Origin: a virus
Taxonomy: Duplodnaviria; Caudoviricetes
Virus record (IMG/VR): IMGVR_UViG_3300049789_000029
Coordinates: 1 to 55,910 of that record
Length of the DNA stretch: 55,910 nt
Direction: 5' to 3' (one strand)
Part shown: positions 17,966-34,345 of the stretch, piece by piece
Numbering within the stretch: position 1 is the stretch's first letter
Layout of the letters: every line of letters begins with the position of its first letter
Program-made: the position numbers and the translations under genes
The notes under the pieces: model-generated
Database searches by the model: none
What the model saw: the letters and a program-made list of their open reading frames with translations, nothing else
What the model was told of the DNA's origin: nothing

Positions 17966-17984
17966 TGGCCAAGTGTGTGTGTGC

Positions 17985-18018: not shown

Positions 18019-18033
18019 CTCCCCTTGAAAATT

Positions 18034-18605: not shown

Positions 18606-18610
18606 GCTGC

Positions 18611-18668: not shown

Positions 18669-18708
18669 GGCGTAGAGTCGAAATCGTTTTCGTAAAACGG
18701 ACAGTTCT

Positions 18709-20715: not shown

Positions 20716-20716
20716 T

Positions 20717-21628
20717 ATGAGAACTCTGACCGACAACGATAGACATTGGGGTCCGTTCACCTTCGGGAAATGGACCGGAACGTTTTCACTCACACTGAGC
20801 AGCGCTGGTGATGACGAGGATCATCCGGAAGAGAAATACAACACACTCCGATTGATTGCCTTTGGGTGGGTTCTCCGCATCCGAATCCCTCAACTCCTCC
20901 AGCCCTTCCGAATCAAACACCTCGCTGACTCGTGGGACGAAGCTACCATCAAGAGACTTGGCCGGAACTGGTATTACGAAGTCCACGAAAAAACGTTTGG
21001 CATTTCCCTGAGCGACATGGGAAACGGATACGACTTCCTTCAACTCTACTTCGGGCCACAGACACACGATAGCAGAACAACGAAGTCATGGTGCAAGCAC
21101 CTTCCGTGGAAACAGTGGAGGCATGTTCGGTTCAGCCTGTATCTTCCAACAGGAGGCCATTACTTCACTCACATCGAAAGCAACAGGCGTGACAGACTGG
21201 ATTCATTTGTTGCGCACATGGCTATTGAGGAGTCGTGCCCAAAAGTGCATTTCGGTTTCGAGGATTACGACGGGGAATTGATCATCGCTACTTGCAACGT
21301 AGAAGAGCGAGAGTGGCTCTTTGGCACCGGCTGGTTCAAGTGGTTAAGCCTCTTTCGCGCTCCTAAAATACGACGCTCGTTGAATCTCCAATTCAGCGCC
21401 GAAGTCGGCCCGCAAAAAAAATCATGGAAAGGCGGAACAGTCGGACACGGCATTGACATGCGCGAAGGCGAGACGCCTGAACAGGCTTTCCGCCGCTACT
21501 GCGAAATGGATCACGAGCGTAAAGGCAAACACTTCAAGCTTCGCTTCATTGGGCCATGCGATGCTCCTGCGAAAAAGGTGCCACAGATGAGTCATGAGGC
21601 TTCACCAGATCAATCCAAAGACTTATGA
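20717..21628 (+). CDS. Hypothetical protein (Trp-rich)
   Basis: 303-aa ORF tightly packed after the primase gene. Confidence 0.8.
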   Translation: MRTLTDNDRHWGPFTFGKWTGTFSLTLSSAGDDEDHPEEKYNTLRLIAFGWVLRIRIPQLLQPFRIKHLADSWDEATIKRLGRNWYYEVHEKTFGISLSDMGNGYDFLQLYFGPQTHDSRTTKSWCKHLPWKQWRHVRFSLYLPTGGHYFTHIESNRRDRLDSFVAHMAIEESCPKVHFGFEDYDGELIIATCNVEEREWLFGTGWFKWLSLFRAPKIRRSLNLQFSAEVGPQKKSWKGGTVGHGIDMREGETPEQAFRRYCEMDHERKGKHFKLRFIGPCDAPAKKVPQMSHEASPDQSKDL

Positions 21629-21903
21629 AAGGCACCTACCTCGAAATCCCTTACGACGCCAAGACCGGCAGAACCCGCAAGCTGGAGGATCACGAAAAGG
21701 CCGCGATGATGCTGCCGCTCCTCTGGGGAACCATCCCGGGCAACGATCTTGGAGCCGCCATGGTCATGATTGCCGCGCTCTGTTTCGATGGCGATGCCAA
21801 CAGAGCCAAGGACGCCATTGACCGCGCCGAATACCTGAACATGATCAGTGTCGAAAACAATCCCTTCACGGATGATGGCACACCTCCGCCCGGGAAAGTG
21901 TGA
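21625..21903 (+). CDS. Hypothetical protein
   Basis: ATGA-coupled. Confidence 0.7.
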   Translation: MKGTYLEIPYDAKTGRTRKLEDHEKAAMMLPLLWGTIPGNDLGAAMVMIAALCFDGDANRAKDAIDRAEYLNMISVENNPFTDDGTPPPGKV

Positions 21904-22022
21904 CAGCTTTTGTCCGGTCCGTCCCACAGTACCTCAACCCCTCTGCAACTGTAGCCTCCGAACAAAGTCAACTGGAGAAAAGTGCGGTAACTTTTCCGCC
22001 GCTCCCACAACACCAGCACCTT

Positions 22023-22412
22023 ATGAACAACCAACAACCCGCAAACCCCTCACCCATCACCCAACTGCCGGACGGCTCCGGCTGTTTCACCGCCACAATC
22101 ATGTCCCGGGAGGAAGCGATGAAGCTCCCGCTCAAGGACCGCCCACTCTGCTACCGCATCTCCTCCGACATGTATCGCGCCGTCTTCGAAGCTATCGGAG
22201 CCGCGTCCATGTGCTGGCAACCACGCCCGGGCACGGAAGTCTTCAAAGCTGAAGAAGCCTCCAACATCGCCGTCGCACTCTGCTTCCAAATCGCAGGCGA
22301 AATCGAAGGAGCCGTGGAAGCCCGCCTCGCCATCATTCAGTTGAAAGCTGATCAGTTGGAAACCCGACTCAATGAAATCATCAACCACCCGCCACAAACT
22401 CCCCCGGCGTGA
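22023..22412 (+). CDS. Hypothetical protein (start may be 21900)
   Basis: LPDGSGCF, EAIGAASMCW. Confidence 0.65.
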   Translation: MNNQQPANPSPITQLPDGSGCFTATIMSREEAMKLPLKDRPLCYRISSDMYRAVFEAIGAASMCWQPRPGTEVFKAEEASNIAVALCFQIAGEIEGAVEARLAIIQLKADQLETRLNEIINHPPQTPPA

Positions 22413-22590
22413 CCGCATCCACCTCTTGGCCGTCCGCGCTCACCACCTGACCGACAACCAGTCCGCCAACGCTTGGACCACTCTCATAGATCAACTGGAT
22501 GAACTCTCCACCAGAGATGTCCCCAAGTTCGATGACCTGTTCCGCGCCGTACGCCTCGCCACCATCCGGGGCCGTCAGTCCTCTCCCTGA
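22372..22590 (+). CDS. Hypothetical protein
   Basis: 72-aa ORF closing the operon. Confidence 0.45.
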   Translation: MKSSTTRHKLPRRDRIHLLAVRAHHLTDNQSANAWTTLIDQLDELSTRDVPKFDDLFRAVRLATIRGRQSSP

Positions 22591-22635
22591 CTGTCCCATT
22601 TACAGACAACCGTAAATGCCGCCCTTTAATGGATT

Positions 22636-22835
22636 CTGGTCTCCCAAACTGAGGTGCTCTCTCATGCCAATTTCTCGTGAGACTTTCTCCACCCCTGAGA
22701 GCCTCAAAAACTGTCTCCTGCTGCATGTTAGTCTCAAGTCTCAAATAGTCCCTATAAGGACTATTCTATTTGAGACACTTGATACTAAATGCAGCCGAAG
22801 TCTCATGAGACTCTCGTGAGATGTATTTGAGACTG
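22636..22835. repeat. GAGAC/GTCTC iteron and palindrome array; candidate replication origin
   Basis: Nine GAGAC/GTCTC copies in ~200 bp, 14-bp palindrome AGTCTCATGAGACT (22799-22812), inverted repeat 22738-48/22766-76, AT-rich. Confidence 0.65.
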
Positions 22836-22890
22836 ATACCTTTCTGTAATAGTCTTGCAGTAATTAGAGGCACCACGTATAACCCAAATA

Positions 22891-23085
22891 ATGAACAATA
22901 AAAAGTGTCTCGTTCCCGATTGTCACAGACATCCAACCGCCAGAGGTCTGTGCCATATCTGCTACAACATCGCTCTCAAAATGGTCAAACGAGGTGAAAC
23001 AACTTGGGAGCAACTTGCTGCTTCCGGAAAAGCCCTCCAATGGCGCGGCAAAGCCAAAACACTTCAGTGGTTCAGACAAAAATAA
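22891..23085 (+). CDS. Small zinc-finger protein
   Basis: CLVPDC...ARGLCHICY. Confidence 0.65.
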   Translation: MNNKKCLVPDCHRHPTARGLCHICYNIALKMVKRGETTWEQLAASGKALQWRGKAKTLQWFRQK

Positions 23086-23107
23086 AATGTCTTACGTATG
23101 TGGGCTA

Positions 23108-23512
23108 TTAACTCTCAATCCGCCTCGCTTTTGGCCCCGGTCCGGGTGGGGGGTGTGGGGACGGGTCGGCCTGCGAAAGAGATTCCTTCGAAAGATTCTC
23201 CGTGGCCTGTGGGGGAGAAGTCGGCGGCGCGGCGTCCGGCTCTTCGAAGTCTCCGGGAGCGGACGGCTCACGAGTGGGCTTGGGGTTGGGAGCAACAGCA
23301 GCACGAGACCGCTTTCCGTTCCTCATCTTCAACTTGGTTTGCTCAAGCTCGTCCCAAGCGCGGACAAGAGTGATGCGTGTCTTCGGGTTCTTGCATTCGC
23401 GGATGTCCTTTGCGAGGAGCGCTTGAAATTCAACGGCTTGAAGGAATGCCAGTGATTGGTGCGGTCGGGTCTTGGTACTGAACGGTTTGCCGGGTGGTTG
23501 GGGAGCAAACAT
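23108..23512 (-). CDS. Hypothetical protein, possible terminase small subunit
   Basis: Helical core with Pro-rich tail; no other TerS candidate seen; function is speculative. Confidence 0.4.
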   Translation of the reverse strand: MFAPQPPGKPFSTKTRPHQSLAFLQAVEFQALLAKDIRECKNPKTRITLVRAWDELEQTKLKMRNGKRSRAAVAPNPKPTREPSAPGDFEEPDAAPPTSPPQATENLSKESLSQADPSPHPPPGPGPKARRIES

Positions 23513-23516
23513 TGGA

Positions 23517-23531
23517 GCATCATGGAACACC
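23517..23531 (+). promoter_or_regulatory. Early-region motif copy 1, GCATCATGGAACACC
   Basis: Other copies at 24403, 25841, 29000 and 31037. Confidence 0.6.
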
Positions 23532-23597
23532 GTATGTGAAGACCAGTCAACAACTGATTGGTGACAACAAACAACAGAACAGAAAAAAGGACAGACA

Positions 23598-24146
23598 ATG
23601 AAACAGATACAGTTATTCAACGGCGTAGTGATTGGTGAGACCAGTGACGTGCTGAAGGCGTGCGCGGTGAAGCATGTGACGAACCCGGGGGAGAAGAAAG
23701 TCAATGCGAAGGGTAAGGAGCGGATTGTGGGAGTGAAGGACGTGACGCAAGTGCAGTTGTTTCCGAGAACGGCGGGAGATGGCAAGCAAAGTTTGGCGAA
23801 ACTCTTTCCGGACCAGAAGGGTCAAGGGTTGATGGCGTTCGAGGTGAAGATGCGCAGTGAGATTGCCGAAGCGGTTCTGAAGGACTTGTCGGGCAAGATC
23901 ATGTCAGGTGAGTACGTGTTCGGTGCGGCCAAGCTGAACAATCGGAACGGCAATTACGATTTGAAGTTCAAGCGGGCGGCTGTCCGGATTGTGCGGGATG
24001 AAGTGACGGAGGAGGCGGCGTGCAAAGCGCTGGGGATTACGGCGGAGCAACTGGCGGCGATAAAGGCGGCGGGATTGCCGGTGCCAGCGGGCAAGGCCAA
24101 GGGTAACAAAACCACGGTGGAAACGCTGACACTGAAGGCGGCTTAA
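23598..24146 (+). CDS. Hypothetical protein (first gene of the rightward early-type block)
   Basis: AAAGGACAG leader, 182 aa. Confidence 0.8.
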   Translation: MKQIQLFNGVVIGETSDVLKACAVKHVTNPGEKKVNAKGKERIVGVKDVTQVQLFPRTAGDGKQSLAKLFPDQKGQGLMAFEVKMRSEIAEAVLKDLSGKIMSGEYVFGAAKLNNRNGNYDLKFKRAAVRIVRDEVTEEAACKALGITAEQLAAIKAAGLPVPAGKAKGNKTTVETLTLKAA

Positions 24147-24230
24147 TCCAACAGAGACCAAGCGAACAATCAACAGAGCGACAGACCAGCGAAGCGGAGC
24201 GCTGGCTGTTGCCGTTGGGAAAGGAACACA

Positions 24231-24401
24231 GTGAAGCGATTGATTGAACTCTTGTTTGTGATCGAATGCCACGAGTCGGACATGATCTGGCACTTGCAAC
24301 ACGGGACAGTTGCGGAGTTTGAAGAGAGCAAAAGGCTTCGGGCTAAAAGTCTGCGTATGCTGGCCAAAGTCGTCCGCTTCGCTGTGCCAACATTCGACTG
24401 A
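24231..24401 (+). CDS. Small hypothetical protein (56 aa)
   Basis: GAAAGGAACA leader then GTG; MKRLIELLFVIECHESD... Confidence 0.5.
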   Translation: MKRLIELLFVIECHESDMIWHLQHGTVAEFEESKRLRAKSLRMLAKVVRFAVPTFD

Positions 24402-24402
24402 A

Positions 24403-24417
24403 GCATCATAGGACACC
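24403..24417 (+). promoter_or_regulatory. Early-region motif copy 2, GCATCATAGGACACC
   Basis: Identical to 25841-25855. Confidence 0.6.
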
Positions 24418-24442
24418 ATTAGTGAAGAAAGGACAGACATCT

Positions 24443-24670
24443 ATGCCGAAACATCTCCGAAAGAACAAAGCGCCCGTGTGTCTGCACATACTGGGCCAGC
24501 CACTCGTCAATCAGGTATGGGAAGAAGGTCACGAGCTACACAAGGCCGTGGTAGACCTTCTCGCGCATCACCGGATCAAAGCGCTGGATGGAGTCAGCGA
24601 CACGTTGCAGCCCCGGCTGGACAGGCTGCGCGAACTGACGCGGGATGAACCCAAGATCGATAGCATCTGA
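24443..24670 (+). CDS. Hypothetical protein
   Basis: AAAGGACAG leader. Confidence 0.65.
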   Translation: MPKHLRKNKAPVCLHILGQPLVNQVWEEGHELHKAVVDLLAHHRIKALDGVSDTLQPRLDRLRELTRDEPKIDSI

Positions 24671-24738
24671 TTGCGGTCTGTCTCGTGACAGGGGACAGAG
24701 CGCAGTTAAATCGACTGCACAACGAAGAAAGGACAGTT

Positions 24739-24963
24739 ATGAGCAAAGCAACAGAGACCAGTTACAAAGGACATCCCACCATCTCACTTGGGACTGACAC
24801 GCGGTTCCCGTTCAACTTCGGTTTGGAGAAGGCCAAGCTGGTTGTTGAGCACATAGACGCCATTCGTGCGTTCGTGGCCAAGCATGACAAGGCTGCGCGT
24901 CATCAGCCCGACCAGTTTGACATGCAGGTGGAAGACAACATGCGGGATGCTTGTGGCCTGTGA
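24739..24963 (+). CDS. Hypothetical protein
   Basis: AAAGGACAG leader; YKGHPTISL..FPFNFGLEKAKLVVEH. Confidence 0.75.
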   Translation: MSKATETSYKGHPTISLGTDTRFPFNFGLEKAKLVVEHIDAIRAFVAKHDKAARHQPDQFDMQVEDNMRDACGL

Positions 24964-25165
24964 AACAGCGCTTCCATTTCTCCAAGCAGCAAACGCAAAC
25001 GGGGAGCACCGCATTTGGTGCGCCCCGGGAGCGCCAGTTCTTGCGCTTGCGAGTTCGATACTGGCCCATGTGGAGACATCTCTCCCCATGGGATATTCGA
25101 GTGATCAAACAGAACCGAACGCTCCAAGTCTGGGCGCTGGAGTTCACAGTCACACGGAGGATGCA

Positions 25166-25387
25166 ATGAACGAATTCGAAAAGCTGATTGCGGCGATTGT
25201 TGCGGACTACAAGGCAGGCACAAAGCCAGCGGTGCTTGCGCTCCGGATCATCGCCATCAAGCCGCACCCTATTCAGATGGCATTCATCGCGTTGGAGGTG
25301 GCTTCGTACATGACGGATCATGACGAATGCGAGTTCCGCTCACAGTTCCTTTGGACATGCACGGAGGTGATGAATGCGCGTGGTTAA
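25166..25387 (+). CDS. Hypothetical protein
   Basis: GGAGG SD before MNEFEKLIAA. Confidence 0.6.
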   Translation: MNEFEKLIAAIVADYKAGTKPAVLALRIIAIKPHPIQMAFIALEVASYMTDHDECEFRSQFLWTCTEVMNARG

Positions 25388-25808
25388 GGTTCCGTGGAAG
25401 CTGGATGCCAAGTGGCTCACTCGCTTCAACAGGCGTTTCAACGTGGACAAGGGCACCTATGATGGCCGCTTCACCTCACGTCTGGGCCGTGGCTATTGCA
25501 CAGGCAATCCGTGGCAGAAGATGGAATACACGTTCACAGAGCAACCGGCCAAAAGAAAGGGGCCGAACAGGAAGACAATGATAACGCAATACGTGATCGA
25601 AGCACGAACTGAGGAAGGGACATTGAAGTTCGATTGTCCCCAGCCTGAAGAGTTCTTCGGCCAAGAGGCCATCACCGGCATCACAACGAACCAGATGGCA
25701 CAGGCCATCTACCGCGCCAAGCCAGACGCGGTGCTAACCGGAGACACAGTTGCCATCTGGCCGCGACTGATCAACGAGCATTGGACAGCACGTCCGATGA
25801 CGTGGTGA
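25374..25808 (+). CDS. Hypothetical protein
   Basis: 144-aa ORF with GGAGGTG upstream. Confidence 0.55.
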   Translation: MRVVKVPWKLDAKWLTRFNRRFNVDKGTYDGRFTSRLGRGYCTGNPWQKMEYTFTEQPAKRKGPNRKTMITQYVIEARTEEGTLKFDCPQPEEFFGQEAITGITTNQMAQAIYRAKPDAVLTGDTVAIWPRLINEHWTARPMTW

Positions 25809-25819
25809 AAAAGACTTGA

Positions 25820-25875
25820 GTTCAGCGCAACATCTACCAAGCATCATAGGACACCTTGGTAGATGGACGCTGGGC
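25820..25875 (+). promoter_or_regulatory. Long hairpin displaying early-region motif copy 3 in its loop
   Basis: catctaccaag-[catcataggacac]-cttggtagatg, extended by gttcagcg/cgctgggc. Confidence 0.65.
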
Positions 25876-25921
25876 GCAACGTTCAGCACAAAACATCAAC
25901 CAACAGAAAGGACAGTTAAGT

Positions 25922-26968
25922 ATGAGAATAAGTGAGTACGGAGACCTTATGGAGAAGGCGCTCCCCAAAGGACGGAAAGTCTTGTCAGTCGGCCCGCCCG
26001 GAGTCGGCAAGACAGAACAGGCTGGCACATCCGCACGGCGTTGCGGGATGGAATTCATCGGCCTGTGTTCAGCGTTGGAAGACCCAAGCTCCATTCGGGG
26101 CTATCCGTCACGAGGAGCCAACGGGGAAGCAACGCATTGCCTGTTCGATGGCATTGCCAAGGCGTTCAAAGCGGAGAAGCCCACGCTTCTCTTTTTCGAT
26201 GACTTGGGCATGGCCAGTGAGAGCACGATGCGAGCGATTGTTCGGCTCGTGCAGTTCGGTGAGATTGATAACCGCAAGCTCCCGGATCATGTGGTGATCG
26301 GTGCGGCGACGAATGACGTAGGGCACGGCGCTGGCGTCTACGGGATGATTGAACCGCTGAAGAGCCGGTTTCATTCCATCGTCAACGTGGAGACGAGTCT
26401 GGAGGACGTGATTGCCTACGGTCTTGCCCATGGCTGGCCAACGGATATGTGCGCCTATCTGCGCAATGCGCCAGATGCATTGCATGATTGGAAGCCTACA
26501 AAGGACATGAAGATCGGTGGCGCGTGTCCGCGTGGCTGGGCATATGCGGCGGACTGGGTGAACGATGGCGTTCTTGACCCGGAGGTGTTGGCTGGCTGTA
26601 TCGGCAAAGGCAGAGCCACGGCTTACATCGCGTTTCGCCAGTTGATCAACGAACTGCCGGACGTGCATCAGGTGTTGATGAATCCGGATTCGGCTCCGGT
26701 GCCTGAGAATCCGTCTGCGCGGTTTTTGGTGTCCATGGCCTTAGCAGGTCACATGGATGGCGGCAACTTCGGCAACGCGATGAAATACCTTGGTCGCTTG
26801 CCCGGGATGTTCCGTGGGTTCGCAATCCGCGACTCCATCAGAGCGGAGAACGAGAAGCGCAAGAATGATACGCTCAAGCCCGGGTATCGGCAGATTAGCG
26901 CCAGTCGTGACTTCACGGCATGGGCCTGTTCTGAGGACGGCAAAGCCATCATGTCGGCGGCATCGTGA
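25922..26968 (+). CDS. MoxR/dynein-related AAA+ ATPase
   Basis: GPPGVGKT, LLFFDDL, GAATN, PLKSRF, CPRGW. Confidence 0.88.
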   Translation: MRISEYGDLMEKALPKGRKVLSVGPPGVGKTEQAGTSARRCGMEFIGLCSALEDPSSIRGYPSRGANGEATHCLFDGIAKAFKAEKPTLLFFDDLGMASESTMRAIVRLVQFGEIDNRKLPDHVVIGAATNDVGHGAGVYGMIEPLKSRFHSIVNVETSLEDVIAYGLAHGWPTDMCAYLRNAPDALHDWKPTKDMKIGGACPRGWAYAADWVNDGVLDPEVLAGCIGKGRATAYIAFRQLINELPDVHQVLMNPDSAPVPENPSARFLVSMALAGHMDGGNFGNAMKYLGRLPGMFRGFAIRDSIRAENEKRKNDTLKPGYRQISASRDFTAWACSEDGKAIMSAAS

Positions 26969-27156
26969 AAAGGTTCAAGGTTCCCAAAGGAGCCGCCATC
27001 ACTGAGCACCTGTCTCCCCAACAGATTGAAGCGGCTGGCCGCTATCACTACTACGTGGAGAGAAAGCGCACAGCGAGCAAGAGTATGCGCAAGCGTCTGC
27101 TGGAACTACAACGACAGGCGCTTGCCGACTACATGACGGCAACTTTGATCAAGTGA
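26965..27156 (+). CDS. Hypothetical protein
   Basis: GTGA-coupled. Confidence 0.55.
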   Translation: MKRFKVPKGAAITEHLSPQQIEAAGRYHYYVERKRTASKSMRKRLLELQRQALADYMTATLIK

Positions 27157-27168
27157 AAGGACAGAAAA

Positions 27169-28434
27169 GTGAGTAAAGAAACGATGCGAAACAAACGTGT
27201 CGAGAAGGCGCAACTGCGCGTTCTCTTCAACGTGCCGTTCTTCGCACCCGGAGTGGCGCAACTCCAGCAAGTGATCTGGGATGCGACGATTCCAACGGCG
27301 TGCACGGACGGAAAGGTCATCCGGTGGAATCCGGATTGGTTCGATCAACTGGAAGATGAGGTGATCGTCACGGTATTGTGTCACGAAGTCGCACACGCAC
27401 TTCTTGGCCATCTGTGGCGGATTCCCCCGGGAGGTGATCCCAAGGTCTGGAATCAAGCCTGTGATCATGCGGTCAACCTGATGCTGAAGGAGTTCGGCAA
27501 GACGGTGACAAACCGGAACATGGCTGATCCATTTCCGTTCCCGAAGCCGGAAAGTGCGTATTGCATGGACCCGCGTTTCTCCGGGATGTCGGAGGAAGCC
27601 ATCTACCAACAACTGGCACAGAACTCCGGTGGAGGTGGTGGGGGAGGCCAAGGACAGGCCGTGGCGGGTTCGGGGGGTAGTTCCGGCCAGCCAAGCGGGA
27701 GAAAAGGGCAGAGCGGGCAGGGAGCAAGCGGCAATACCCCTCAGAATGGTTCTCCTCCTCCGTTCGGAGAGTTCACTCCCCAGCCAGCGACAGACCAGCA
27801 AGCCAAGCAGGACAAGACCCAATGGGAGAACACCCTATTGCAGAGCATTGCGGCCAGCAAAGGCCGTGGTGATGTCCCCGGGATGCTGGACAGGTTTGTT
27901 GAGGAGTTGATGAACCCCAAAGTTCCTTGGACAGAGCTGGTCAAGAACTGGCTTCGCGAGAAGGCAGAGGATGACTGGGACTGGACCAAGCCGAATCCTT
28001 ACTTCGATGACGGGGACTTCATCCTCCCCAGTCTGCACAGCGAGCGGATGGGAACGGCAGTGTTCGCGACGGATACGTCCGGCAGTATCGATCAAACGGT
28101 GCTGGCCAAGTTCCAAGCGGAGAAGCAAGGATTCTTGGACGAGATGAAGCCGACGAAGCTCGTGGACATCTGCTGTGACACCCGGATCACTCAGGAGAAG
28201 GAATACAGGGTGGGTGATCAGATTGACACCAACTGCCCGGGTGGAGGCGGGACACGGTTTGAGCCGGTGTTCGAACATATTGAAGGGTTCACGGACAAGC
28301 CCAAGTTCGCGGTCTACCTGACAGACTTGGACGGAAGCTTCCCGGCACAGGAACCGGATTATCCGGTGCTCTGGGTGGTCTACGGATGCGGGGATAAGAA
28401 GGCACCGTTTGGAGACACCATTCAAGCGGAGTAA
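27169..28434 (+). CDS. HExxH metallopeptidase + VWA-like protein (DUF2201 type)
   Basis: TACTDG, CHEVAH, WNQACDHAVN; MIDAS DTSGS, GGGTRF, YLTD. Confidence 0.9.
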   Translation: MSKETMRNKRVEKAQLRVLFNVPFFAPGVAQLQQVIWDATIPTACTDGKVIRWNPDWFDQLEDEVIVTVLCHEVAHALLGHLWRIPPGGDPKVWNQACDHAVNLMLKEFGKTVTNRNMADPFPFPKPESAYCMDPRFSGMSEEAIYQQLAQNSGGGGGGGQGQAVAGSGGSSGQPSGRKGQSGQGASGNTPQNGSPPPFGEFTPQPATDQQAKQDKTQWENTLLQSIAASKGRGDVPGMLDRFVEELMNPKVPWTELVKNWLREKAEDDWDWTKPNPYFDDGDFILPSLHSERMGTAVFATDTSGSIDQTVLAKFQAEKQGFLDEMKPTKLVDICCDTRITQEKEYRVGDQIDTNCPGGGGTRFEPVFEHIEGFTDKPKFAVYLTDLDGSFPAQEPDYPVLWVVYGCGDKKAPFGDTIQAE

Positions 28435-28438
28435 TCAA

Positions 28439-28720
28439 ATGCCAAATCCGGAGAACTTGCCCGGTGGTTCGCTGACTCATGACTTCCTGACTGTGGAAGC
28501 GTGGAAGCCAAAAGGCGAGAAAAGCGAATTGCCGTTCAAGTTCCCGGACTGGCTCTACAACGATGACGGCAGAGAGGACGTGGAATCTATTCGTGCCTTC
28601 TGCCTTCATCACATTGAGAATTATGACCAGCAATACAAGTTCTGGCACACGGAACGATGGCGGACTTTTATTCAGCAGAGGCAAGCGGCCTGTTGCGCGT
28701 GGCTCCTCGCTCACTCATGA
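28439..28720 (+). CDS. Hypothetical protein
   Basis: Packed ORF. Confidence 0.6.
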   Translation: MPNPENLPGGSLTHDFLTVEAWKPKGEKSELPFKFPDWLYNDDGREDVESIRAFCLHHIENYDQQYKFWHTERWRTFIQQRQAACCAWLLAHS

Positions 28721-29022
28721 ATAATCTTCCTCCAATCAACCTGAATCAGGACGGCTGGAAGTGGGAAGCCTTTGTTGTGGATTCCATGCCCGTTCAATCG
28801 GCAAAGGAAGCCGTAGCTGCTGGACAGTGCGACAATTACCACGCTTGCCTTGTGAACATGATCTTGTGCGGCATCACCGAACAGAAAGGAACCGCCCGGA
28901 CTTGGTTCATGTATGGCAACAAGCGAGTCTTTATTCGGTTCACTCGTTTGAGCGACGGAGTTCGAATGACGGAGTGGGGCAATACGGACGACAACCGAAG
29001 CATCATGGAACGCCTTAGATGA
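28717..29022 (+). CDS. Hypothetical protein
   Basis: ATGA-coupled. Confidence 0.6.
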   Translation: MNNLPPINLNQDGWKWEAFVVDSMPVQSAKEAVAAGQCDNYHACLVNMILCGITEQKGTARTWFMYGNKRVFIRFTRLSDGVRMTEWGNTDDNRSIMERLR

Positions 29023-29213
29023 AGACGTGGATAGATGACATCCGGAACAAGCTTATGACTCCGGAAGAGAAGGCCATCTTTGAAGAGCGCAAGATTATCG
29101 CTCGGATGGAAGACTTTCTGAGCCGTGCGACATCGCCAAAGAAGATTGTGCGGTACACGCATCGAATGAACCGAGCACGAACAAGGCTCACGGTGTTGTT
29201 GCTGATCAAATGA
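29019..29213 (+). CDS. Hypothetical protein
   Basis: ATGA-coupled. Confidence 0.6.
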   Translation: MKTWIDDIRNKLMTPEEKAIFEERKIIARMEDFLSRATSPKKIVRYTHRMNRARTRLTVLLLIK

Positions 29214-29219
29214 ATTTCT

Positions 29220-29337
29220 GCACTGAGATTGGTCTGTGGTGTGATTCCACGCGGAACGCGCAGGATAGTTCCCGGGTGGCCAACGGTGGTGACGCCTGCG
29301 TCAGTAGAAACTGGGTTCGATTCCCGGCAGTGCGCCA
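29220..29337 (+). ncRNA. tRNA-like RNA with canonical T-arm and CCA end but a non-canonical, enlarged body
   Basis: GCACTG/CAGTGC-G-CCA acceptor-like stem; CTGGG-TTCGATT-CCCGG T-arm; no assignable anticodon. Confidence 0.55.
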
Positions 29338-29390
29338 GATTTCCCGGTTAAAGTGATCGGGGATAACCAAGAAGAAAGGACAGTTAAAAA

Positions 29391-30287
29391 ATGAGCACAC
29401 AGTTAGCAAAGCGAGCCGTTCTTATGCGGCTCACCATGGGATTGCCGGGTGAATTCCGGCAGGATGACAGCCTGACACAGGACGTGAAGAAGGAACACAA
29501 CTTGGGTCAACAGGCTGGCAAGTGGGTCAAGGCGTTGTATCCGCCCGAAGCGCTGGCCGACATCAAGAAGCTGGACAACGAAGCCAGAACGTATCATGAC
29601 GCCATCACGCTCCCGTTCGATAAGGGCATCGGTATTCTCCCGGCTGCACTGATCATGGAACACGCTGAGAGAATGCGGACGTTCATGGGACGACGGGAAG
29701 CGCTGGTCAACGCTCGCTTCATGGCTGATCCCCAGAAGTGGATTGACTGGGCGCATACCAATCACAACGGGACGTTTGACCCTAGCCTGTATCCGGGTTG
29801 CTACAAGGACGAAGCTACCGGGACGTGGATGGTGGACGCGGACAAGTTCCGTAAGGAGATGAAGGCCAAGTTCTACTTCCGCACGGAACCGTTGCCGGTG
29901 CCGGACTCGAAACACTTTGAGACCAGCGTCAAGGACTTGCTGGGACTGGACTCGGAGTCGGTGAATATCCGGATTGAAGATGCCGCAAAGGAAGCGCAAC
30001 AGGAGTTGCTCCGAAGAATGCTCAAGCCAGTGGCACACATGGCGGCAACTCTGAAGAAGGAAGACCCGCGCATCTTTGATTCGCTGATCGGGAACGTGAA
30101 GGAGATTGCGGACATCGCTCCGAAGCAGAATCTCACGGATGATCCGGTGATCAACGAACTGGCAAAGGAGATGGCTGGCCTTGTTCAGTACACTCCGGAC
30201 AACTTGCGCAAGTCAGCTGGGACGAGAGAGGCAGCGGCGATGAAGGCACAAGCGCTGATGGACCGGCTCAGTGGTTACAAGCTGTGA
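29391..30287 (+). CDS. DUF3150-like protein
   Basis: Helical 298 aa, TLPFDKGIGILP, YP motif; typical neighbour of AAA/VWA pairs. Confidence 0.6.
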   Translation: MSTQLAKRAVLMRLTMGLPGEFRQDDSLTQDVKKEHNLGQQAGKWVKALYPPEALADIKKLDNEARTYHDAITLPFDKGIGILPAALIMEHAERMRTFMGRREALVNARFMADPQKWIDWAHTNHNGTFDPSLYPGCYKDEATGTWMVDADKFRKEMKAKFYFRTEPLPVPDSKHFETSVKDLLGLDSESVNIRIEDAAKEAQQELLRRMLKPVAHMAATLKKEDPRIFDSLIGNVKEIADIAPKQNLTDDPVINELAKEMAGLVQYTPDNLRKSAGTREAAAMKAQALMDRLSGYKL

Positions 30288-30502
30288 AGTTCAGCGGCTA
30301 TCCATCGGACGACGTTGTGACAATGCAACAATTCAAGAAGCACTTGGATTCCATTGACGAACGACGGATTGAACGGCAAATCGCGGCCCTGAGACACAAA
30401 CTCGGGGCTGCGAGGAGCCTTCGAAAACGAGAGCGTTACGCCAAACGGATTCAATCCAAGAAAGCTCAGTTGTTGGTGGCTGTCATCTGTAGAGAACGAT
30501 GA
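30284..30502 (+). CDS. Hypothetical protein
   Basis: Coupled ORF. Confidence 0.55.
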   Translation: MKFSGYPSDDVVTMQQFKKHLDSIDERRIERQIAALRHKLGAARSLRKRERYAKRIQSKKAQLLVAVICRER

Positions 30503-30708
30503 TGCCAGAAACCTACATGCTGATTCGGAGTGAGTTGCCGCATCTGAAGCTGCCTCACTGGATAGACCTATTACCAACAAGCCGAAGGAAAGCGAAGCGC
30601 CTGAACAGGGAACAACTGATAGCCAAGCGCACATATGTGTTGATGGCTTCTGAGTTTCCAAAGGAACAGATTCAGAGTGAAAACCTTTGGCCCCGGAAGC
30701 TCAAATGA
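30499..30708 (+). CDS. Hypothetical protein
   Basis: Coupled ORF. Confidence 0.55.
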   Translation: MMPETYMLIRSELPHLKLPHWIDLLPTSRRKAKRLNREQLIAKRTYVLMASEFPKEQIQSENLWPRKLK

Positions 30709-31055
30709 ACAAGCCGAAATACATCATCGGTGAAGCGGTCTACGTGGACTTTAGTGGAGTCGTTGAAGGTGTGCCGGTGAAGGTGCGCAAACATCTCTGG
30801 GTGTTTGGTGTCCAGATTGGAGTAGATGCTTACCCGAAGTTCGCTCCAGTGTTCGTGTACAAGTTGAGCGAAAATCCTCCGATTGTCGGAGAGCGGCCCG
30901 GGAAATTTTACGAGAAACAGGAATCTGAAATCATTGGCCCGGTGGAACCTGTGGTTGCGGAGGTGACGAAGGCTCAAGCGGAAGAGAAAGCACAACAGCA
31001 ACAGAACGCGCAGAAGATCATCGATGTGATGACCAAGCATCATGAGACACCATAA
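30705..31055 (+). CDS. Hypothetical protein
   Basis: Coupled ORF. Confidence 0.65.
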   Translation: MNKPKYIIGEAVYVDFSGVVEGVPVKVRKHLWVFGVQIGVDAYPKFAPVFVYKLSENPPIVGERPGKFYEKQESEIIGPVEPVVAEVTKAQAEEKAQQQQNAQKIIDVMTKHHETP

Positions 31056-31101
31056 GAGAGTGATTGGGGCCAGAGTGCCGAAGCAGTTCAAGGAATCAGG
31101 G

Positions 31102-31365
31102 ATGGAGTCATTTCCAGCACTTCACAAACCGTTAGTGATTTCTGAACTGAGTCGGCAAGAGCGGTTGTTGCTGGGATATGCTGGAGCGATGGGAATGCGG
31201 GAGTTCGCGTGGAGTCGGTTTCATCCAAGCGCCATCATCGGCAAACTGCCGGACTCGGATGTCTATTATCGGCTGACACTGGTGATAGAGGGTAAGATCG
31301 AAAAGAATCCCGATGCGGAACTGGTGGCAATGATCTACCTAGCCAGCATCGGAGAGCAACTGTAA
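31102..31365 (+). CDS. Hypothetical protein
   Basis: ORF, start uncertain. Confidence 0.55.
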   Translation: MESFPALHKPLVISELSRQERLLLGYAGAMGMREFAWSRFHPSAIIGKLPDSDVYYRLTLVIEGKIEKNPDAELVAMIYLASIGEQL

Positions 31366-31386
31366 CAAACAAAAGGACAGAACAGT

Positions 31387-31671
31387 ATGAGTGAAGAGAC
31401 AGAGAATCAAAGCGAGCCAAGCCAGAGCACAGCCAATGCGATGCTCCGTGTCTTGAACGGCAAGCGGTTGAAGTGGACCGTCGTGATTCACCTGCCAGAC
31501 GGGAAAAAGCTGGAGTGGCAAGCCGTGGCCAAACCGCATGTGAAGTGGAACGATGAAGACCGATGCCTCTGGCTGATGGATAGCTCAGGCTACAGCAACA
31601 GTCCCGTCATGAAGTGGCCAGAAGGAGCCGTCATCCTCTGTGAGGACAATGAACCCGACAAGAAGCCATGA
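31387..31671 (+). CDS. Hypothetical protein
   Basis: AAAGGACAG leader. Confidence 0.7.
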   Translation: MSEETENQSEPSQSTANAMLRVLNGKRLKWTVVIHLPDGKKLEWQAVAKPHVKWNDEDRCLWLMDSSGYSNSPVMKWPEGAVILCEDNEPDKKP

Positions 31672-31778
31672 ACTTTGATCGATTCAAACCCATTTGGAGA
31701 GAGCGCCGTCCGGTGGACGAACGGAACCCGGACGATGGCATCACAGGGGATGTAAACCACAACGAAGAAAGGACAGTT

Positions 31779-31994
31779 ATGGTAAGAGACAAACGCATCT
31801 CGTTCGTCAATGAACGAGCCACAGACAGCAACGGGCTGGTGATCGTTTTCACCGGCAAATACGAACCCGATAAGAAACGACTCAAGGTATATCGAATCGA
31901 AGGAAACATCACGGACATGGAGGCTGTTGCCGAAGTGATCCGGGAGCGAGTGCAATCCATGGGACATCCAGTGGACAAGGTGTTGGTCCTCTGA
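31779..31994 (+). CDS. Hypothetical protein (could start at 31668)
   Basis: AAAGGACAG leader directly before ATG 31779. Confidence 0.6.
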   Translation: MVRDKRISFVNERATDSNGLVIVFTGKYEPDKKRLKVYRIEGNITDMEAVAEVIRERVQSMGHPVDKVLVL

Positions 31995-32003
31995 CAACCA
32001 ACT

Positions 32004-32246
32004 ATGGCAATCAGACCAAGATCGGAGATGAAAGATCGGAAACCGGAAATCGATCTGAGCGGCCCGGACGGTAACGCTTACGCACTCATGGGCCACGCGA
32101 GAAACTTCGCGAAGCAACTGAACATTGATCCGGAGCCAATCATCACAGACATGATGTCCAGTAATTACGAGCATCTGCTGGAGGTGTTTGAGAAACACTT
32201 CGGAGAATACGTCACGCTCTACAGGGACACCGGGGACGACGAATGA
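32004..32246 (+). CDS. Conserved-looking small phage protein
   Basis: IDLSGPDGNAYALMG...MMSSNYEHLL..F. Confidence 0.75.
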   Translation: MAIRPRSEMKDRKPEIDLSGPDGNAYALMGHARNFAKQLNIDPEPIITDMMSSNYEHLLEVFEKHFGEYVTLYRDTGDDE

Positions 32247-32428
32247 AACCGCCCGAAGGCTACCGGCTCCTCCGACGTGGAGAACTGACAGAGCCGGGAG
32301 ACCTTGGGTGCATCGATGTCAAACGTGGCTGGACGGAACTCCGGGCTGGCCACGTCATTTACCAGAGAGTGTCAGTATCCGGGCGTGTTGCTCGGAAGAT
32401 AGAAAACAAAACGAAGAAAGGACAGTAA
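32243..32428 (+). CDS. Hypothetical protein
   Basis: PPEGYRLL..GE....GD. Confidence 0.55.
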   Translation: MKPPEGYRLLRRGELTEPGDLGCIDVKRGWTELRAGHVIYQRVSVSGRVARKIENKTKKGQ

Positions 32429-32429
32429 C

Positions 32430-32666
32430 ATGAACGCAGAAACACAAACACCGAAGCCGAAGGCCGGACGCACCAAAACGGACCCGGCAATCGTGGCAGT
32501 CAAGAAAGCGTATCGTTCCACACCGTTGTTCGAAGTGGACGAACTGATGAAGCAGCAATCCCGGTGGATGCGAAAGCGCACCATTGCGGAGAACAAGCTG
32601 GCCGACGTGCGCAAGCGCATGGACGAACTGTTGAAGGAACTGGCTACACCCAAGATGTCGTCATGA
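32430..32666 (+). CDS. Hypothetical protein
   Basis: AAAGGACAG leader. Confidence 0.7.
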   Translation: MNAETQTPKPKAGRTKTDPAIVAVKKAYRSTPLFEVDELMKQQSRWMRKRTIAENKLADVRKRMDELLKELATPKMSS

Positions 32667-32908
32667 TCAACGTGTGCTCAGAGAACCACGACGAAGTGGC
32701 CTACATTGACCGCGAGTGTCCGATGTGCGTCCTGATCGGACAGCACAAAGAGGCACTCTCGGACGAGAGGGATAAGGTCAAGGTGTTGGAAAGCGAATTA
32801 TCCGACGCTCTTGCCGAAATCCAACTCCTTCGCGAGCCGGTCATCTGTGCCGTGAAGGTGATCAGAGAGGAGATGCTCAATGAGTCACCCCTTGCGCAAT
32901 CACCGTAG
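32663..32908 (+). CDS. Small Zn-binding/coiled-coil protein
   Basis: CSENH...CPMC. Confidence 0.6.
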   Translation: MINVCSENHDEVAYIDRECPMCVLIGQHKEALSDERDKVKVLESELSDALAEIQLLREPVICAVKVIREEMLNESPLAQSP

Positions 32909-32971
32909 CTCGTGATATGGAACAGCAGCAGAAAACAGGACAGACAGGACAGTAACCAACAAAACCAATTC

Positions 32972-33036
32972 GGAGTGCGGGCCTGCGAGTAGCTCACTTC
33001 TCGCCGTCAACTGTCCGACGCTTCGGCCCGCACTCC
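32972..33036 (+). ncRNA. Candidate multi-branch cis-regulatory RNA
   Basis: Perfect 12-bp stem ggagtgcgggcc/ggcccgcactcc enclosing two hairpins (gcgag/ctcgc, cgtc/gacg). Confidence 0.5.
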
Positions 33037-33062
33037 ACCCCTTAAACAGAAAGACAGAAACC

Positions 33063-34124
33063 ATGACTGATAATAAAAACCAACCCGTGGAAGAACTGGA
33101 AGTGCTTGCGCCATCGGCTGTGATGTCCCTTGAACGGGCATCCATCGATTGCCAAGTCGCCACGGCACACCAATACCCTCGCAGCTTGGAACTGTTCAAG
33201 AAGCGTGCGCTCTCCATGGCCACGCTGGACTTGCCGACAGCGGAAAGCTGTATCTACTCCCGGCCTGTCGGAGACGGCAAGGTTGCGGAAGGTGCCAGCA
33301 TTCGTCTGGCAGAAATCGTAGCAGCCAGCTACGGCAATCTTCGTGTTGCTTCGCGCATCGTGGAACAGACTGAACGCTACGTGAAGTGCGAAGGAGTTGC
33401 TCACGATCTTGAATCCAATTACGCGGGCAAGTCCGAGTGCATTGAGCCAACCGTCACGAAGATGGGAAAGCCCTACTCCGAAGGGCAACGCGCAGTTGTG
33501 GCCAAGGCGTGTCTGGCCAAGGCTTACCGGGATGCCGTGTTCAAGGTTGTCCCCAAGGCGTTGTGCAAAGCGGTGATCGATGCCGCCATCGGTGTCATCA
33601 ACAAGGATGTGGTCTCTCTGGAAGACCGTCGCAAACGAGTGCGTGACTGGCTGAAGGCAATCAAGGTGGATGACCGCCGCGTGTTCACCGTCCTGAAAGT
33701 AAAGGGCTGGAGTGAAGTGTCGGACGATCACTTGATTGTTCTCACTGGACTCAAGACCGCCATCAACGACGGAGACACAACGGTTGAGGAAGCGTTCCCG
33801 AACATTCCCAGCAAGCCGTTGTTCAACGAGCCAACTCCTCCGGCAGGAGCGCCACAGGAAGCGAACCCGGCAGGAGCAACTCCGCCAACGCCGCCCGCAC
33901 CTCAACAGAAGCAGCAGACTCCGGTGGAGAAGGTTCGTTCCTTCTCCAAGATTGCCGGAGTAAAAGAGGAAACGGTGATCTATTTCCTGACAGAAGTAGG
34001 CATTGCTGAACAGGGCACTCAGACGTTCGAACAGTTGAACGAGAGCGCTCTTGAGACGCTGCTCAACCAGTGGGAAGACATTGTTAAGCGCGTGAAGGAG
34101 ATGGCGACAGCGGCGAATATGTAA
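33063..34124 (+). CDS. Putative single-strand annealing/recombination protein
   Basis: IDCQVATAHQYPR..., EGASIRLAE, AYRDAVFKVVP; close to the exonuclease gene. Confidence 0.5.
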   Translation: MTDNKNQPVEELEVLAPSAVMSLERASIDCQVATAHQYPRSLELFKKRALSMATLDLPTAESCIYSRPVGDGKVAEGASIRLAEIVAASYGNLRVASRIVEQTERYVKCEGVAHDLESNYAGKSECIEPTVTKMGKPYSEGQRAVVAKACLAKAYRDAVFKVVPKALCKAVIDAAIGVINKDVVSLEDRRKRVRDWLKAIKVDDRRVFTVLKVKGWSEVSDDHLIVLTGLKTAINDGDTTVEEAFPNIPSKPLFNEPTPPAGAPQEANPAGATPPTPPAPQQKQQTPVEKVRSFSKIAGVKEETVIYFLTEVGIAEQGTQTFEQLNESALETLLNQWEDIVKRVKEMATAANM

Positions 34125-34131
34125 CCAATTT

Positions 34132-34333
34132 AACAACGCGACCGGAGCAACGTGGCTGGCATGATGGTCTTTTGGTAACTGTCCCCGTCATGTATCAGTC
34201 TGGAAATTGCCTGGGCAGAAAAAGGACTGGCTCTCTCGTGAAATGAGGATACGGGTCACAGCTTCCTCTATAAGCGGAGAGTTGGTTCATGCACCCCACT
34301 TGCAGGGTGCATCCTCTGTACGGGCGCGTTGTT
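34132..34333 (+). ncRNA. Candidate ~200-nt structured ncRNA
   Basis: Closing stem aacaacgcg/cgcgttgtt with at least five internal stems. Confidence 0.6.
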
Positions 34334-34345
34334 TGTTACGAAATT

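Follow-up and report, generated by a model that had tools for sequence, protein, structure and literature searches.

The gene module and its repeated word

The window, that is, the whole stretch of DNA analysed, is a complete virus record of 55,910 bp from an uncultured soil phage and represents its whole genome. A block of plus-strand genes begins at 15.5 kb, with an XRE helix-turn-helix gene at its head (15524-15781) that encodes the only recognisable DNA-binding protein. Further into this block lies a module that comprises the AAA ATPase, DUF2201, and DUF3150 genes along with numerous small ones (Table 1). Among cultured phages, DUF2201 homologues (about 30% identity) come mainly from N4-like phages, and the AAA gene likewise has homologues there; the proteins of the phage family mostly match nothing known. 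A conserved gene at the edge of the structural block encodes a giant protein of 2077 aa.

The 15-mer GCATCATRRRACRCC occurs in five exact copies between 23.5 and 31.1 kb of the 55.9 kb, all on the plus strand, starting at 23517, 24403, 25841, 29000, and 31037. All five are preceded by A and lie at gene boundaries, as the first-pass annotation had reported and as exact search and shuffles bear out; no match was found in any of 100 dinucleotide shuffles, and the five-copy repeat is beyond chance. That annotation had seen no copy beyond the block. This holds for the whole genome because the window is the complete virus record, and a search of both strands allowing 2 mismatches adds none. Copy 1 lies within a 142-nt gap ahead of a 182-aa gene, and copy 4 also overlaps the ATG at 29019, the start of a 64-aa ORF. 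The 15-nt extent first assigned describes a real word, but the conserved signal is longer. Numbered from the G of GCATCAT, T at +17, G at +22, and A at +23 are common to all five copies, and a 28-nt repeat family is made up of three copies. The 15-mer is the left part of a one-directional, two-box signal of about 27 nt (M1 in Table 1).

Table 1. Coordinates of the signal copies, ribosome-binding words, hairpin, and genes of the module
Feature	Coordinates	Strand	Remarks
M1 copy 1	23516..23543	+	Box A AGCATCAT, 8-nt spacer, box B; repeat family D7
21-codon ORF	23536..23601	+	Opens at GTG in box B of copy 1; stop overlaps ATG 23598
M2 ribosome-binding word AAGGACAG	23587..23594	+	Before ATG at 23598
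M1 copy 2	24402..24429	+	First A directly 3′ of the TGA stop of the upstream small ORF
M2 word	24429..24436	+	Before ATG at 24443
Hairpin at copy 3	25820..25875	+	Inner 11-bp stem, 25831-25841 with 25855-25865; outer 8-bp stem around it
M1 copy 3	25840..25867	+	Upstream of AAA ATPase gene
18-codon ORF	25863..25919	+	Opens at ATG in box B of copy 3; stop 2 nt before ATG 25922
M2 word	25908..25915	+	Before ATG at 25922 (AAA ATPase)
AAA ATPase gene (phrog_1297)	25922..26968	+	Conserved gene downstream of copy 3
DUF2201 gene	27169..28434	+	Metallopeptidase-like and VWA-like domains
M1 copy 4	28999..29026	+	Overlaps last codons of upstream ORF (stop 29020-29022)
DUF3150-like gene	29391..30287	+	Conserved in relatives; M1 copy ahead in several relatives
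M1 copy 5	31036..31063	+	Overlaps end of upstream ORF (stop 31053-31055)

The module also switches ribosome-binding style in the window. The M2 word has 10 plus-strand copies, all between 23587 and 32425, and a scan for it gave 11 matches against 2.2 expected. An AAGGA-type word stands ahead of 11 starts at 23598-32430 and of 0 starts at 15524-23455.

The two-box signal in related phages

The signal is composed of box A, (A)AGCATCAY, an 8-nt spacer, and a G/T-rich box B of the type WWRGGTGAR, and it recurs across a family of uncultured soil phages of ~45-58 kb. Relatives were found with the DUF2201 gene as a marker, and strand counts were made over 33 loci (260,673 bases). The coding-strand and opposite-strand counts of GCATCAY there are 92 and 42; they fall to 50 and 9 with a preceding A (AGCATCAY) and to 35 and 2 with a preceding AA. 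At the 50 coding-strand AGCATCAY sites, box B stands at a fixed distance from box A, with G at positions 19-21 in 22, 27, and 30 sites, T at position 22 in 33, G at position 23 in 32, and C depleted across positions 19-24. This pattern is absent from the 42 opposite-strand sites. A sequence-only motif model trained on 20 sites recovered another 4 from 426,399 bases and another 9 from 95,844 bases, all 9 of the latter on the coding strand. The two boxes have a weak 4-bp dyad, TCAC/GTGA, in common.

In four complete genomes, the copies that bear a box B are confined to this module, which holds 5, 3, 4, and 3 of them. Their placement is partly syntenic (ahead of the AAA gene, behind DUF2201, and ahead of DUF3150), and there is little conservation among relatives in the genes that separate the copies. 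A motif search across the genome and its relatives, as proposed in the first-pass annotation, finds the signal in the same places of related phages. The signal is real, one-directional, and specific to this phage lineage, and it lies in the non-structural block. In more distant relatives that have these genes, different repeated words occupy comparable positions, which is expected for promoter/reader pairs.

Wherever a box B is present (38 of 38 sites), the end of a long upstream ORF falls within −45 to +29 of box A. In 31 of these, a ribosome-binding site with its start comes next at +22 to +167, and the search rule found none in the remaining 7. Where the signal overlaps coding sequence, it does so in at least three reading frames, the different frames being seen at window copies 4 and 5, in the L115 group, and in L008. 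Because it crosses codons in several frames and precedes a separate start, it is a nucleic-acid signal and not a start-codon signal. The order of signal, leader, GAAAGGAC word, and start recurs in L007, L010, L096, L100, and L105.

Hairpins and candidate readers

At copy 3, box A lies in the 13-nt loop of a hairpin and box B in its 3′ arm. The 11-bp stem described in the first-pass annotation is real by this measure: the fold (−29 kcal/mol, z −7.1) was reached by 0 of 200 shuffles. The weaker complementary flanks that had been noted at copies 1, 2, and 4 are at chance level (z 0.24, −0.28, and −0.29, respectively), and with copy 5 at z 0.91, copy 3 is the only one of the five to fold better than shuffled sequence. 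Across the family, a strong hairpin encloses the site, with box A in its loop, in 7 of 34 cases (about one in five), and the other 27 have no significant structure. Display in hairpin loops, which the first-pass annotation had described for part of the copies, is thus not general. The hairpins of relatives share the design of that at copy 3, with stem sequences that differ between genomes and loops of 8-16 nt. An Rfam search gave no match.

No RNA polymerase or sigma factor is recognisable by Pfam over the ORFs or by PHROGs over 30 ORFs, and the DxDxD motif is absent from every large ORF, in agreement with the initial failure to recognise a polymerase motif. The 2077-aa protein has no sequence match in Pfam, PHROG, or PDB and neither a DxDxD nor a motif-B pattern. 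The AF2 model of its conserved C-terminal 838 residues, as helices, is poor (pLDDT 61), and this low confidence leaves room for a very divergent polymerase. It had been suggested that an injected protein might read the signal; nothing links the signal to one.

In relatives, a small arginine-rich protein of 55-70 aa is encoded right after DUF2201, and its family extends over 9 relatives. The first 20 codons of this small basic gene contain the signal, in two different frames, with clear copies in L012, L101, L107, L111, and L115 and variant words in L008 and L013. The gene product contains an arginine-rich stretch that is conserved, and it is modelled as two helices (mean pLDDT 84); no Pfam or PHROG family and no solved fold matched it. 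In the window, hhalign gives a probability of 0.3% that the 64-aa ORF is its homologue, and the sole profile match to the small protein (E 0.008) lies upstream of that ORF's start. Of the runs on record as RNA that were searched for the phage sequence, none holds it.

Possible functions of the signal

The best reading, which we hold tentatively, is that the signal is a lineage-specific promoter for the middle-gene module. A promoter would fit a sequence that exceeds chance, is conserved, sits at gene boundaries, is specific to one module and one lineage, and acts at the level of nucleic acid. The motif, its extension, strand bias, positions, conservation, and hairpins are observed, and to these we add by inference the action on DNA, the transcription start, and the reader. 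The signal would head the transcription units of the module, and the host RNA polymerase would be recruited to the two boxes by a candidate factor, perhaps an alternative sigma factor of the host or a phage protein outside known families. RNA synthesis would begin a few bases past box B, giving a leader of 20-140 nt that would often begin with its own hairpin and end in the strong ribosome-binding word GAAAGGAC. At about one-fifth of sites, the upstream sequence may have evolved to pair with box B, and RNA reading through from the gene before it would then finish in a hairpin that carries box A in its loop, forming a stop-and-restart cassette. Promoters of the T4 middle and phiEco32 types are used by the host RNA polymerase together with a phage-made sigma factor or activator. 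The signal resembles such phage middle and late promoters in having several copies in one temporal gene block, all oriented with the genes, and in being a two-part site with fixed spacing that is lineage-specific and unlike the host's standard promoter. It differs in that no gene for a sigma factor, activator, or polymerase is recognised in this phage, where initiation is a prediction.

Several observations sit less easily with a promoter. The genome has no recognisable RNA polymerase or sigma factor, and the G-rich box B would not be easily melted. The boxes are unlike sigma-70 hexamers (−35/−10, 16-18 bp apart), and the consensus scan lists no site at any copy (5 sites in 15000-34900 versus 8.2 expected). 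In at least six relatives, the signal falls inside codons ~6-20 of the small conserved gene, and a promoter there cannot serve that gene. The promoter type of SigB, a group 3 sigma factor, given as GTTTAA-N12-14-GGG(A/T)A(A/T) (PMC8346170), is similar in its two boxes, short spacer, and G-rich downstream box, and the Streptomyces −35 boxes GCATAA and GCCATC cited in that source resemble box A, although they may not be those of the host. The distance from GCATCA to the GGGT-type hexamer is 10-11 nt at six sites measured by hand, not 12-14 nt, and the fifth position of the hexamer, A in the SigB −10 box with its three G, is A in 11 of 50 sites and G in 32. PeSL of T4-like phages are described as composite terminator/promoter cassettes with host-type early promoters (PMC4122927). 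Like the signal, they are small repeated regulatory units between genes of a variable region, with a stem-loop joined to a promoter, which is predicted in our case; unlike PeSL as that source presents them, the signal has a stem-loop at only 7 of 34 sites, one that wraps it instead of adjoining it, and no host-type promoter was found at the sites.

The main rival holds that the signal acts in RNA, as a binding or cutting site in the polycistronic transcript, which we regard as possible but on the unlikely side. Its reader could be the arginine-rich two-helix protein encoded after DUF2201 in relatives, and the effect could be lambda N-like antitermination, autoregulation, or processing that leaves a stable 5′ end. 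The position of the signal within the first 20 codons of the small basic gene is suggestive, as regulators often control their own message in this way, and so are the arginine-rich stretch and predicted helices, the family hairpins with box A in the loop and stems varying by genome, and a genome that offers no polymerase or sigma factor to read a promoter. The nut sites of lambda, with the N protein, are the general comparator. A nut site is laid out as a single-stranded box, a spacer, and a second element, and the box, 8-nt spacer, and second element of the signal are similar; it too lies in a transcription-unit leader, and in relatives a gene for a small arginine-rich protein lies at one copy. 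The analogy to nut/boxB drawn in the first-pass annotation fails at the second box, which is not a hairpin at each site but linear and G/T-rich. There are also 3-5 copies per genome here, no homology to N was found, and downstream terminators are not part of the evidence. Further points against action in RNA are the 27 of 34 sites without significant structure, the blank Rfam search, the small protein's lack of a Pfam, PHROG, or solved-fold match and of a demonstrable homologue in the window, and the distance of most sites from the next start (30-140 nt), which is too far for direct translational repression. A bolder form of the idea, which we consider unlikely, makes the signal the target of a new kind of small regulator. 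In it, the 55-70-aa arginine-rich protein would reprogram either the host polymerase or the transcript, acting at 3-5 sites in each genome as an N/nut-like or sigma-appropriation-like switch without sequence or fold relative, in a family that makes no polymerase or sigma factor of its own. Among the functions first offered (promoter, antitermination, or processing), promoter and processing stay the two best readings, and the N4 and nut models break down on their defining features.

It seems to us quite unlikely that a phage regulator, for instance the XRE helix-turn-helix protein, uses the signal as a DNA operator to turn the module off or on. The sites would then resemble the one-directional stoperators of mycobacteriophage L5, which are described as transcription-regulating 13-bp sites (PMC3203893). 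The XRE protein is the one recognisable candidate, and 3 of the 5 related genomes encode a homologue; the sites are asymmetric, occur in several copies, and point along the direction of transcription; and the two boxes share the weak dyad. However, the sites fall within one 7.5-kb module instead of being spread over the genome as for a temperate immunity repressor, Pfam scans show no integrase or other sign of a temperate lifestyle, 2 of the 5 signal-carrying genomes lack the helix-turn-helix gene or have one that escapes detection, and a dimer bound to a dyad would not predict strict orientation. We consider it very unlikely that the signal is a start-associated translation signal, with the purines of the 15-mer as ribosome-binding site and an ATG or GTG start in box B. 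Such a codon does lie 4-8 nt past the 15-mer at every window copy, opening the frame of the next gene at copies 2, 4, and 5 and, at copies 1 and 3, a short ORF that ends at the next start. The signal also shares with the SAS of Cluster K mycobacteriophages, as they are described (PMC3203893), its shortness, asymmetry, and many one-directional copies confined to the non-structural half, its conservation across subgroups ahead of unrelated genes, and extra inverted repeats at a subset; neither has a reader assigned to it. An SAS includes the Shine-Dalgarno core and stands 3-7 bp upstream of its start codon (PMC3203893), whereas here the true start, with its own ribosome-binding word, is 22-167 nt downstream. 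Box B holds ATG or GTG at 32 of 38 sites, but the longest frame from it has 1-22 codons in 24 of the 32, three of which are start-stop pairs. The GTG of the L115 group is in a different frame from the conserved protein, and at 4 of the 5 window copies a better ribosome-binding word and ATG lie downstream.

Most improbable of all is an N4-type hairpin promoter served by an RNA polymerase packaged in the virion, for which the 2077-aa protein would be the candidate. The likenesses are the neighbouring AAA and DUF2201 genes with their N4-like homologues, a conserved giant gene bordering the structural block, an arrangement also found in N4, and one copy in a hairpin. N4 early promoters are described as three sites at the first-injected genome end, each with a GC-rich heptamer between inverted repeats that form a small hairpin (PMC4496689), the loop being three nucleotides (PMC9163698). 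In LUZ7, the stems are at least 4 bp in early and at least 6 bp in middle promoters, the loops are 3-4 nt, and phage polymerases read them (PMC9163698, PMC4496689). In contrast, four of the five window copies have no hairpin, the fifth has a 13-nt loop, and most family sites are hairpin-free. The copies lie in the middle of the record, whose ends may differ from the physical ends, and the giant protein, with a C-terminus that models poorly, lacks any match or motif of a T7-like virion RNA polymerase. The N4 analogy made in the first-pass annotation fails on four counts: the size of the loop, the size of the stem, the position of the copies, and the polymerase.

Overall, the signal defines a regulon in a widespread, never-cultured family of soil phages. 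If it is a promoter, it has no recognisable reader, and identifying one would show a new means by which a phage redirects host transcription. Should it act in RNA, its partner would be a new small arginine-rich protein. Either way, the motif model can mark middle-gene units and family membership in metagenomic contigs, and the conserved hairpin-wrapped copies provide a ready test case for stop-and-restart cassettes.

The two-box signal and its copies

The first-pass annotation had reported five plus-strand copies of a 15-nt motif, each preceded by A, and all five positions were confirmed; none of 100 shuffled sequences contained a match, and a search allowing two mismatches returned no further copy in the window. 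Each copy adjoins a gene boundary, as had also been claimed. The conserved stretch exceeds 15 nt, with further downstream positions common to all five copies, and a repeat search puts three of them in one 28-nt family.

Searching viral contigs with a single protein gave no close relatives, whereas alignment-based searches found them: an alignment of 24 DUF2201 homologues yielded 72 loci among viral contigs and another 24 among metagenome contigs. Homologues of DUF2201 at 50-66% identity number in the hundreds, and contigs of 54-57 kb carry many of them. The motif recurs in relatives in altered form. None carries the exact 15-mer, but a box A, (A)AGCATCAY, followed by 8 nt and a WWRGGTGAR-type box B, is present, and the 15-mer corresponds to the left part of this signal of about 27 nt. 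The statistics come from 33 non-redundant loci with 260,673 bases in total, each oriented by its DUF2201 gene; "coding strand" is approximate here, because some flanks hold genes in the opposite orientation. GCATCAY occurs 92 times on the coding strand and 42 times on the other; the counts become 50 and 9 with A before it, and 35 and 2 with AA. A box-B-like word follows in 44/92 coding-strand and 4/42 other-strand cases. The box-B profile was drawn from all 50 coding-strand AGCATCAY sites, whatever follows: 38 sites carry A or T at positions 17-18, T stands at position 22 in 33 sites and G at position 23 in 32, and C is nearly missing at positions 19-24. No such pattern appears in the 42 opposite-strand sites. 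A sequence-only model of 20 sites recovered 16 of them, and gave four new sites in 426,399 bases and nine in 95,844 bases, the latter all on the coding strand. Copies with box B number 5, 3, 4, and 3 in four complete genomes and lie inside the module only.

At all 38 box-B sites, the end of a long upstream ORF falls at -45 to +29 relative to box A, often with its stop codon abutting the box, and at 31 of them the next ribosome-binding site and start follow at +22 to +167. Synteny is partial: copies recur ahead of the AAA gene, immediately behind DUF2201, and ahead of the DUF3150 gene. Box B contains ATG or GTG in 32 sites, and in 24 of these the longest frame opened is 1-22 codons (three are start-stop pairs); hence the signal does not generally mark a start codon. 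In the window, the ATG or GTG 4-8 nt after the 15-mer is mostly not the best start, and four of the five copies have good starts 25-66 nt past the 15-mer (23598, 24443, 25922, and 31102). The box-B codons of copies 2, 4, and 5 open the frame of the next gene; that of copy 1 opens a 21-codon ORF with an ATGA overlap with the next start, and that of copy 3 an 18-codon ORF whose stop lies 2 nt ahead of the next ATG. Where coding frames run through the signal, they read AGC ATC ATG in copy 4, AAG CAT CAT in copy 5, GCA TCA in the group of related locus L115, and, through a variant word in locus L008, AAC ATC ACC. Crossing coding sequence in different frames, the signal works as nucleic acid and not as peptide.

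A distinct expression module and its genome

A second repeated word, with core AAGGACAG and mostly of the form GAAAGGACAG, occurs on the plus strand in 10 copies ahead of starts, all within 23587-32425 (2.2 matches expected), and starts in 15524-23455 lack AAGGACAG. Given this confinement and the absence before 23455, the five copies of the signal therefore punctuate a distinct expression module. A word of type GAAAGGACAG precedes the good starts after copies 1 to 3, and AAGGAATCAG precedes that after copy 5. The order of signal, leader, GAAAGGAC word, and start is repeated in five related loci (L007, L010, L096, L100, and L105).

The translation-start style switches sharply inside a single strand block of the window: Shine-Dalgarno-like sequence is almost absent from the rightward genes that precede the first motif copy (roughly 18, at 15524-23455) and strong in the genes after it. 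Relatives have their own versions of the ribosome-binding word, TACTGAAAGGAAA and GAAAGGTAAAC.

The record is complete, 55,910 bp long, and carries a terminal repeat of 127 bp. Its genes alternate in direction: leftward from about 15.5 kb, rightward between 15,524 and about 36,840, leftward again as far as 49,835, and rightward for the terminase. Five whole related records were compared with the window; structural genes, AAA, DUF2201, DUF3150, and the nuclease are held in common, but only a few of the small genes are. Most of the large leftward genes are without any match in Pfam and PHROG scans. Among 50,697 deposited phage records, which include no close relative of the window, megablast found no match to 23000-32000, and the motif was not found there. 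The five sequencing runs containing window sequence are all soil metagenome DNA, none being listed as RNA. A search of genome contigs gave one distant match (34% identity), in a gammaproteobacterial MAG, and a host is therefore not inferred.

Coordinates of features in the window and in related loci
Feature	Sequence	Position	Remark
XRE-type helix-turn-helix gene	window	15524	rightward block
Primase-helicase	window	18709	rightward block
Acb3 homologue (CBASS inhibitor)	window	20717-21628	rightward block; Pfam E 6.7e-63
Copies 1-5 of the 15-mer	window	23517, 24403, 25841, 29000, 31037	
AAA ATPase	window	25922	rightward block
DUF2201 protein	window	27169	rightward block
DUF3150-like protein	window	29391	rightward block; function not assignable
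PD-(D/E)XK nuclease	window	34654	rightward block
HNH endonuclease	window	36365	rightward block
Small basic ORF	L115; L107; L111; L013; others	532-702; 3236-3400; 895-1095; 11523-11696	right after DUF2201
CAATTAC-loop hairpin	L007; L103; L105	~2900-2965; ~3110-3160; ~1880-1925	
Two-box word, five copies	L017	7837, 12733, 13048, 14825, 15190	most begin with TGA stop codon
Another word, four copies	L018	7485, 11621, 12407, 14127	
Hairpin-plus-word units, five	L013	1270, 1730, 9706, 11303, 13055	

Several further features of the window deserve mention. The Acb3 homologue is missing in all five related genomes compared, and a sugar-modifying cluster at 8261-14316 on the minus strand (an RmlD-like reductase, glycosyltransferases, and a methyltransferase hit) is common to relatives only in part. 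The best terminator-like site of the plus block, a 10-bp GC-rich stem and then a T run at 17985-18011, follows the first small-gene group, where an early unit may end. A gap of 177 nt precedes the DUF3150-like gene; within it, 24 nt at 29314-29337 resemble a tRNA T-arm and acceptor 3' end terminated by CCA. Neither ARAGORN nor Rfam makes a call there; the stretch may represent a relic or the core of an attachment site, but no integrase was found. ARAGORN detected no tRNA genes in the window, and Rfam no known RNA family over the whole window at gathering thresholds or in 23400-31200 at E up to 1.

Hairpins and candidate readers

Display of the motif in hairpin loops, proposed for several copies, held for copy 3, where an 11-bp inner stem closes a loop of 13 nt (z -7.1, -29 kcal/mol), but not for the other four, which fold no better than shuffles (z -0.29 to +0.91). 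Across 34 folded sites (20 + 14), z is -3 or lower in seven: copy 3, two sites in related genome G002, one in genome G003, two in locus L007, and a variant site in locus L103. Six of these seven strong hairpins place box A in the loop, with box B as the 3' arm paired to sequence preceding box A; at the second site in G002, box A itself pairs with downstream sequence instead. The stems are built from CATCTACCAAG with CTTGGTAGATG in the window, CTATCCGC with GCGGATAG in G002, and TCACCCATGG with CCATGGGTGA in L007; thus, the fold is kept and the sequence is not. RNAalifold gave no consensus structure for six hairpin sites because loop lengths vary, and the hairpin evidence consequently comes from single-sequence z-scores and inspection. 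The hairpin is a recurrent option outside the core signal. Pairing of box A with box B was considered and rejected: by hand tally, an ATG-type box B accompanies 3 of about 22 T-form and 0 of about 18 C-form sites, which is not significant. The leader of the DUF3150-like gene contains a separate hairpin, with a conserved CAATTAC loop and stems differing between genomes, immediately ahead of the ribosome-binding word; this is possibly a regulatory element of the RNA.

The earlier failure to recognize an RNA polymerase was upheld. Pfam over the ORFs revealed no sigma factor or RNA polymerase, PHROGs agree, PDB sequence searches returned neither, and a DxDxD motif is absent from every large ORF. 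The sole nucleic-acid-binding match in the Pfam reader search over ORFs is the XRE helix-turn-helix protein (15524-15781). A 2077-aa protein (36783-43016, minus strand) has conserved counterparts in each of the five related genomes (31-41% identity, best over its last 840 residues) and has no family, motif, or PDB sequence match, alone or as a six-homologue profile. Its conserved C-terminal 838 residues are modeled as helices (AF2 pLDDT 61, a poor model), and hydrophobic helices in this part suggest an ejection or membrane protein. The cultured-phage homologues of DUF2201 belong mainly to N4-like phages at about 30% identity, a distant link that does not bring N4's polymerases along.

In nine relatives, DUF2201 is followed by a small basic ORF of 55-70 aa, whose product has a conserved C-terminal helix and an arginine-rich stretch that is likewise conserved. 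Six loci (L012, L013, L101, L107, L111, and L115) carry the signal or a variant inside about codons 6-20 of this ORF; L008 has its variant word there in another frame, and in L112 the signal comes after the ORF. The protein is modeled as two helices (pLDDT 84) and has no known family and no solved-fold match at E below 2. For the window, no homologue can be demonstrated; even so, in the equivalent region, copy 4 stands where a 64-aa basic ORF (29019-29213) begins. In several genomes, the start codon of the small basic ORF falls within the last DUF2201 codons.

Possible roles: promoter, RNA site, or operator

A promoter best accounts for five features of the signal: its two-box geometry is fixed over about 27 bp, its orientation is strict, it precedes leaders of variable length, it is restricted to one module, and it turns over between lineages. 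Against a promoter, a recognizable reader is missing, sigma-70 hexamers do not fit, and in several relatives the signal lies inside the small arginine-rich gene. The geometry recalls that of SigB-type promoters, for which PMC8346170 quotes a spacer of 12-14 nt; by comparison, the signal has 10-11 nt and a different fifth base in the downstream box, and a SigB-type promoter is not assigned on these two mismatches. Copies inside the small arginine-rich gene and the box-A loop display would be accounted for by a role at the RNA level, perhaps with the small arginine-rich protein, although consistent structure is lacking and the binding is putative. It is also possible that the signal is an operator for the XRE helix-turn-helix protein, but this would leave its orientation unexplained.

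Other candidates were set aside. A SAS-like element, as described in PMC3203893, disagrees with the signal in features that were tested, and so does an N4-type promoter as described in PMC4496689 and PMC9163698. CsrA-type GGA sites were dropped by inspection, no GGA being present in the spacer of relatives; replication iterons, primase sites, and packaging sites were likewise set aside by inspection alone.

The promoter reading draws in part on more distant relatives with AAA and DUF2201 genes. The signal is absent from these relatives, and other repeated, one-directional words stand at the gene boundaries of the corresponding module, as in loci L017, L018, and L013. Such turnover of words between lineages is the pattern that would be expected of signals co-evolving with a lineage-specific reader.
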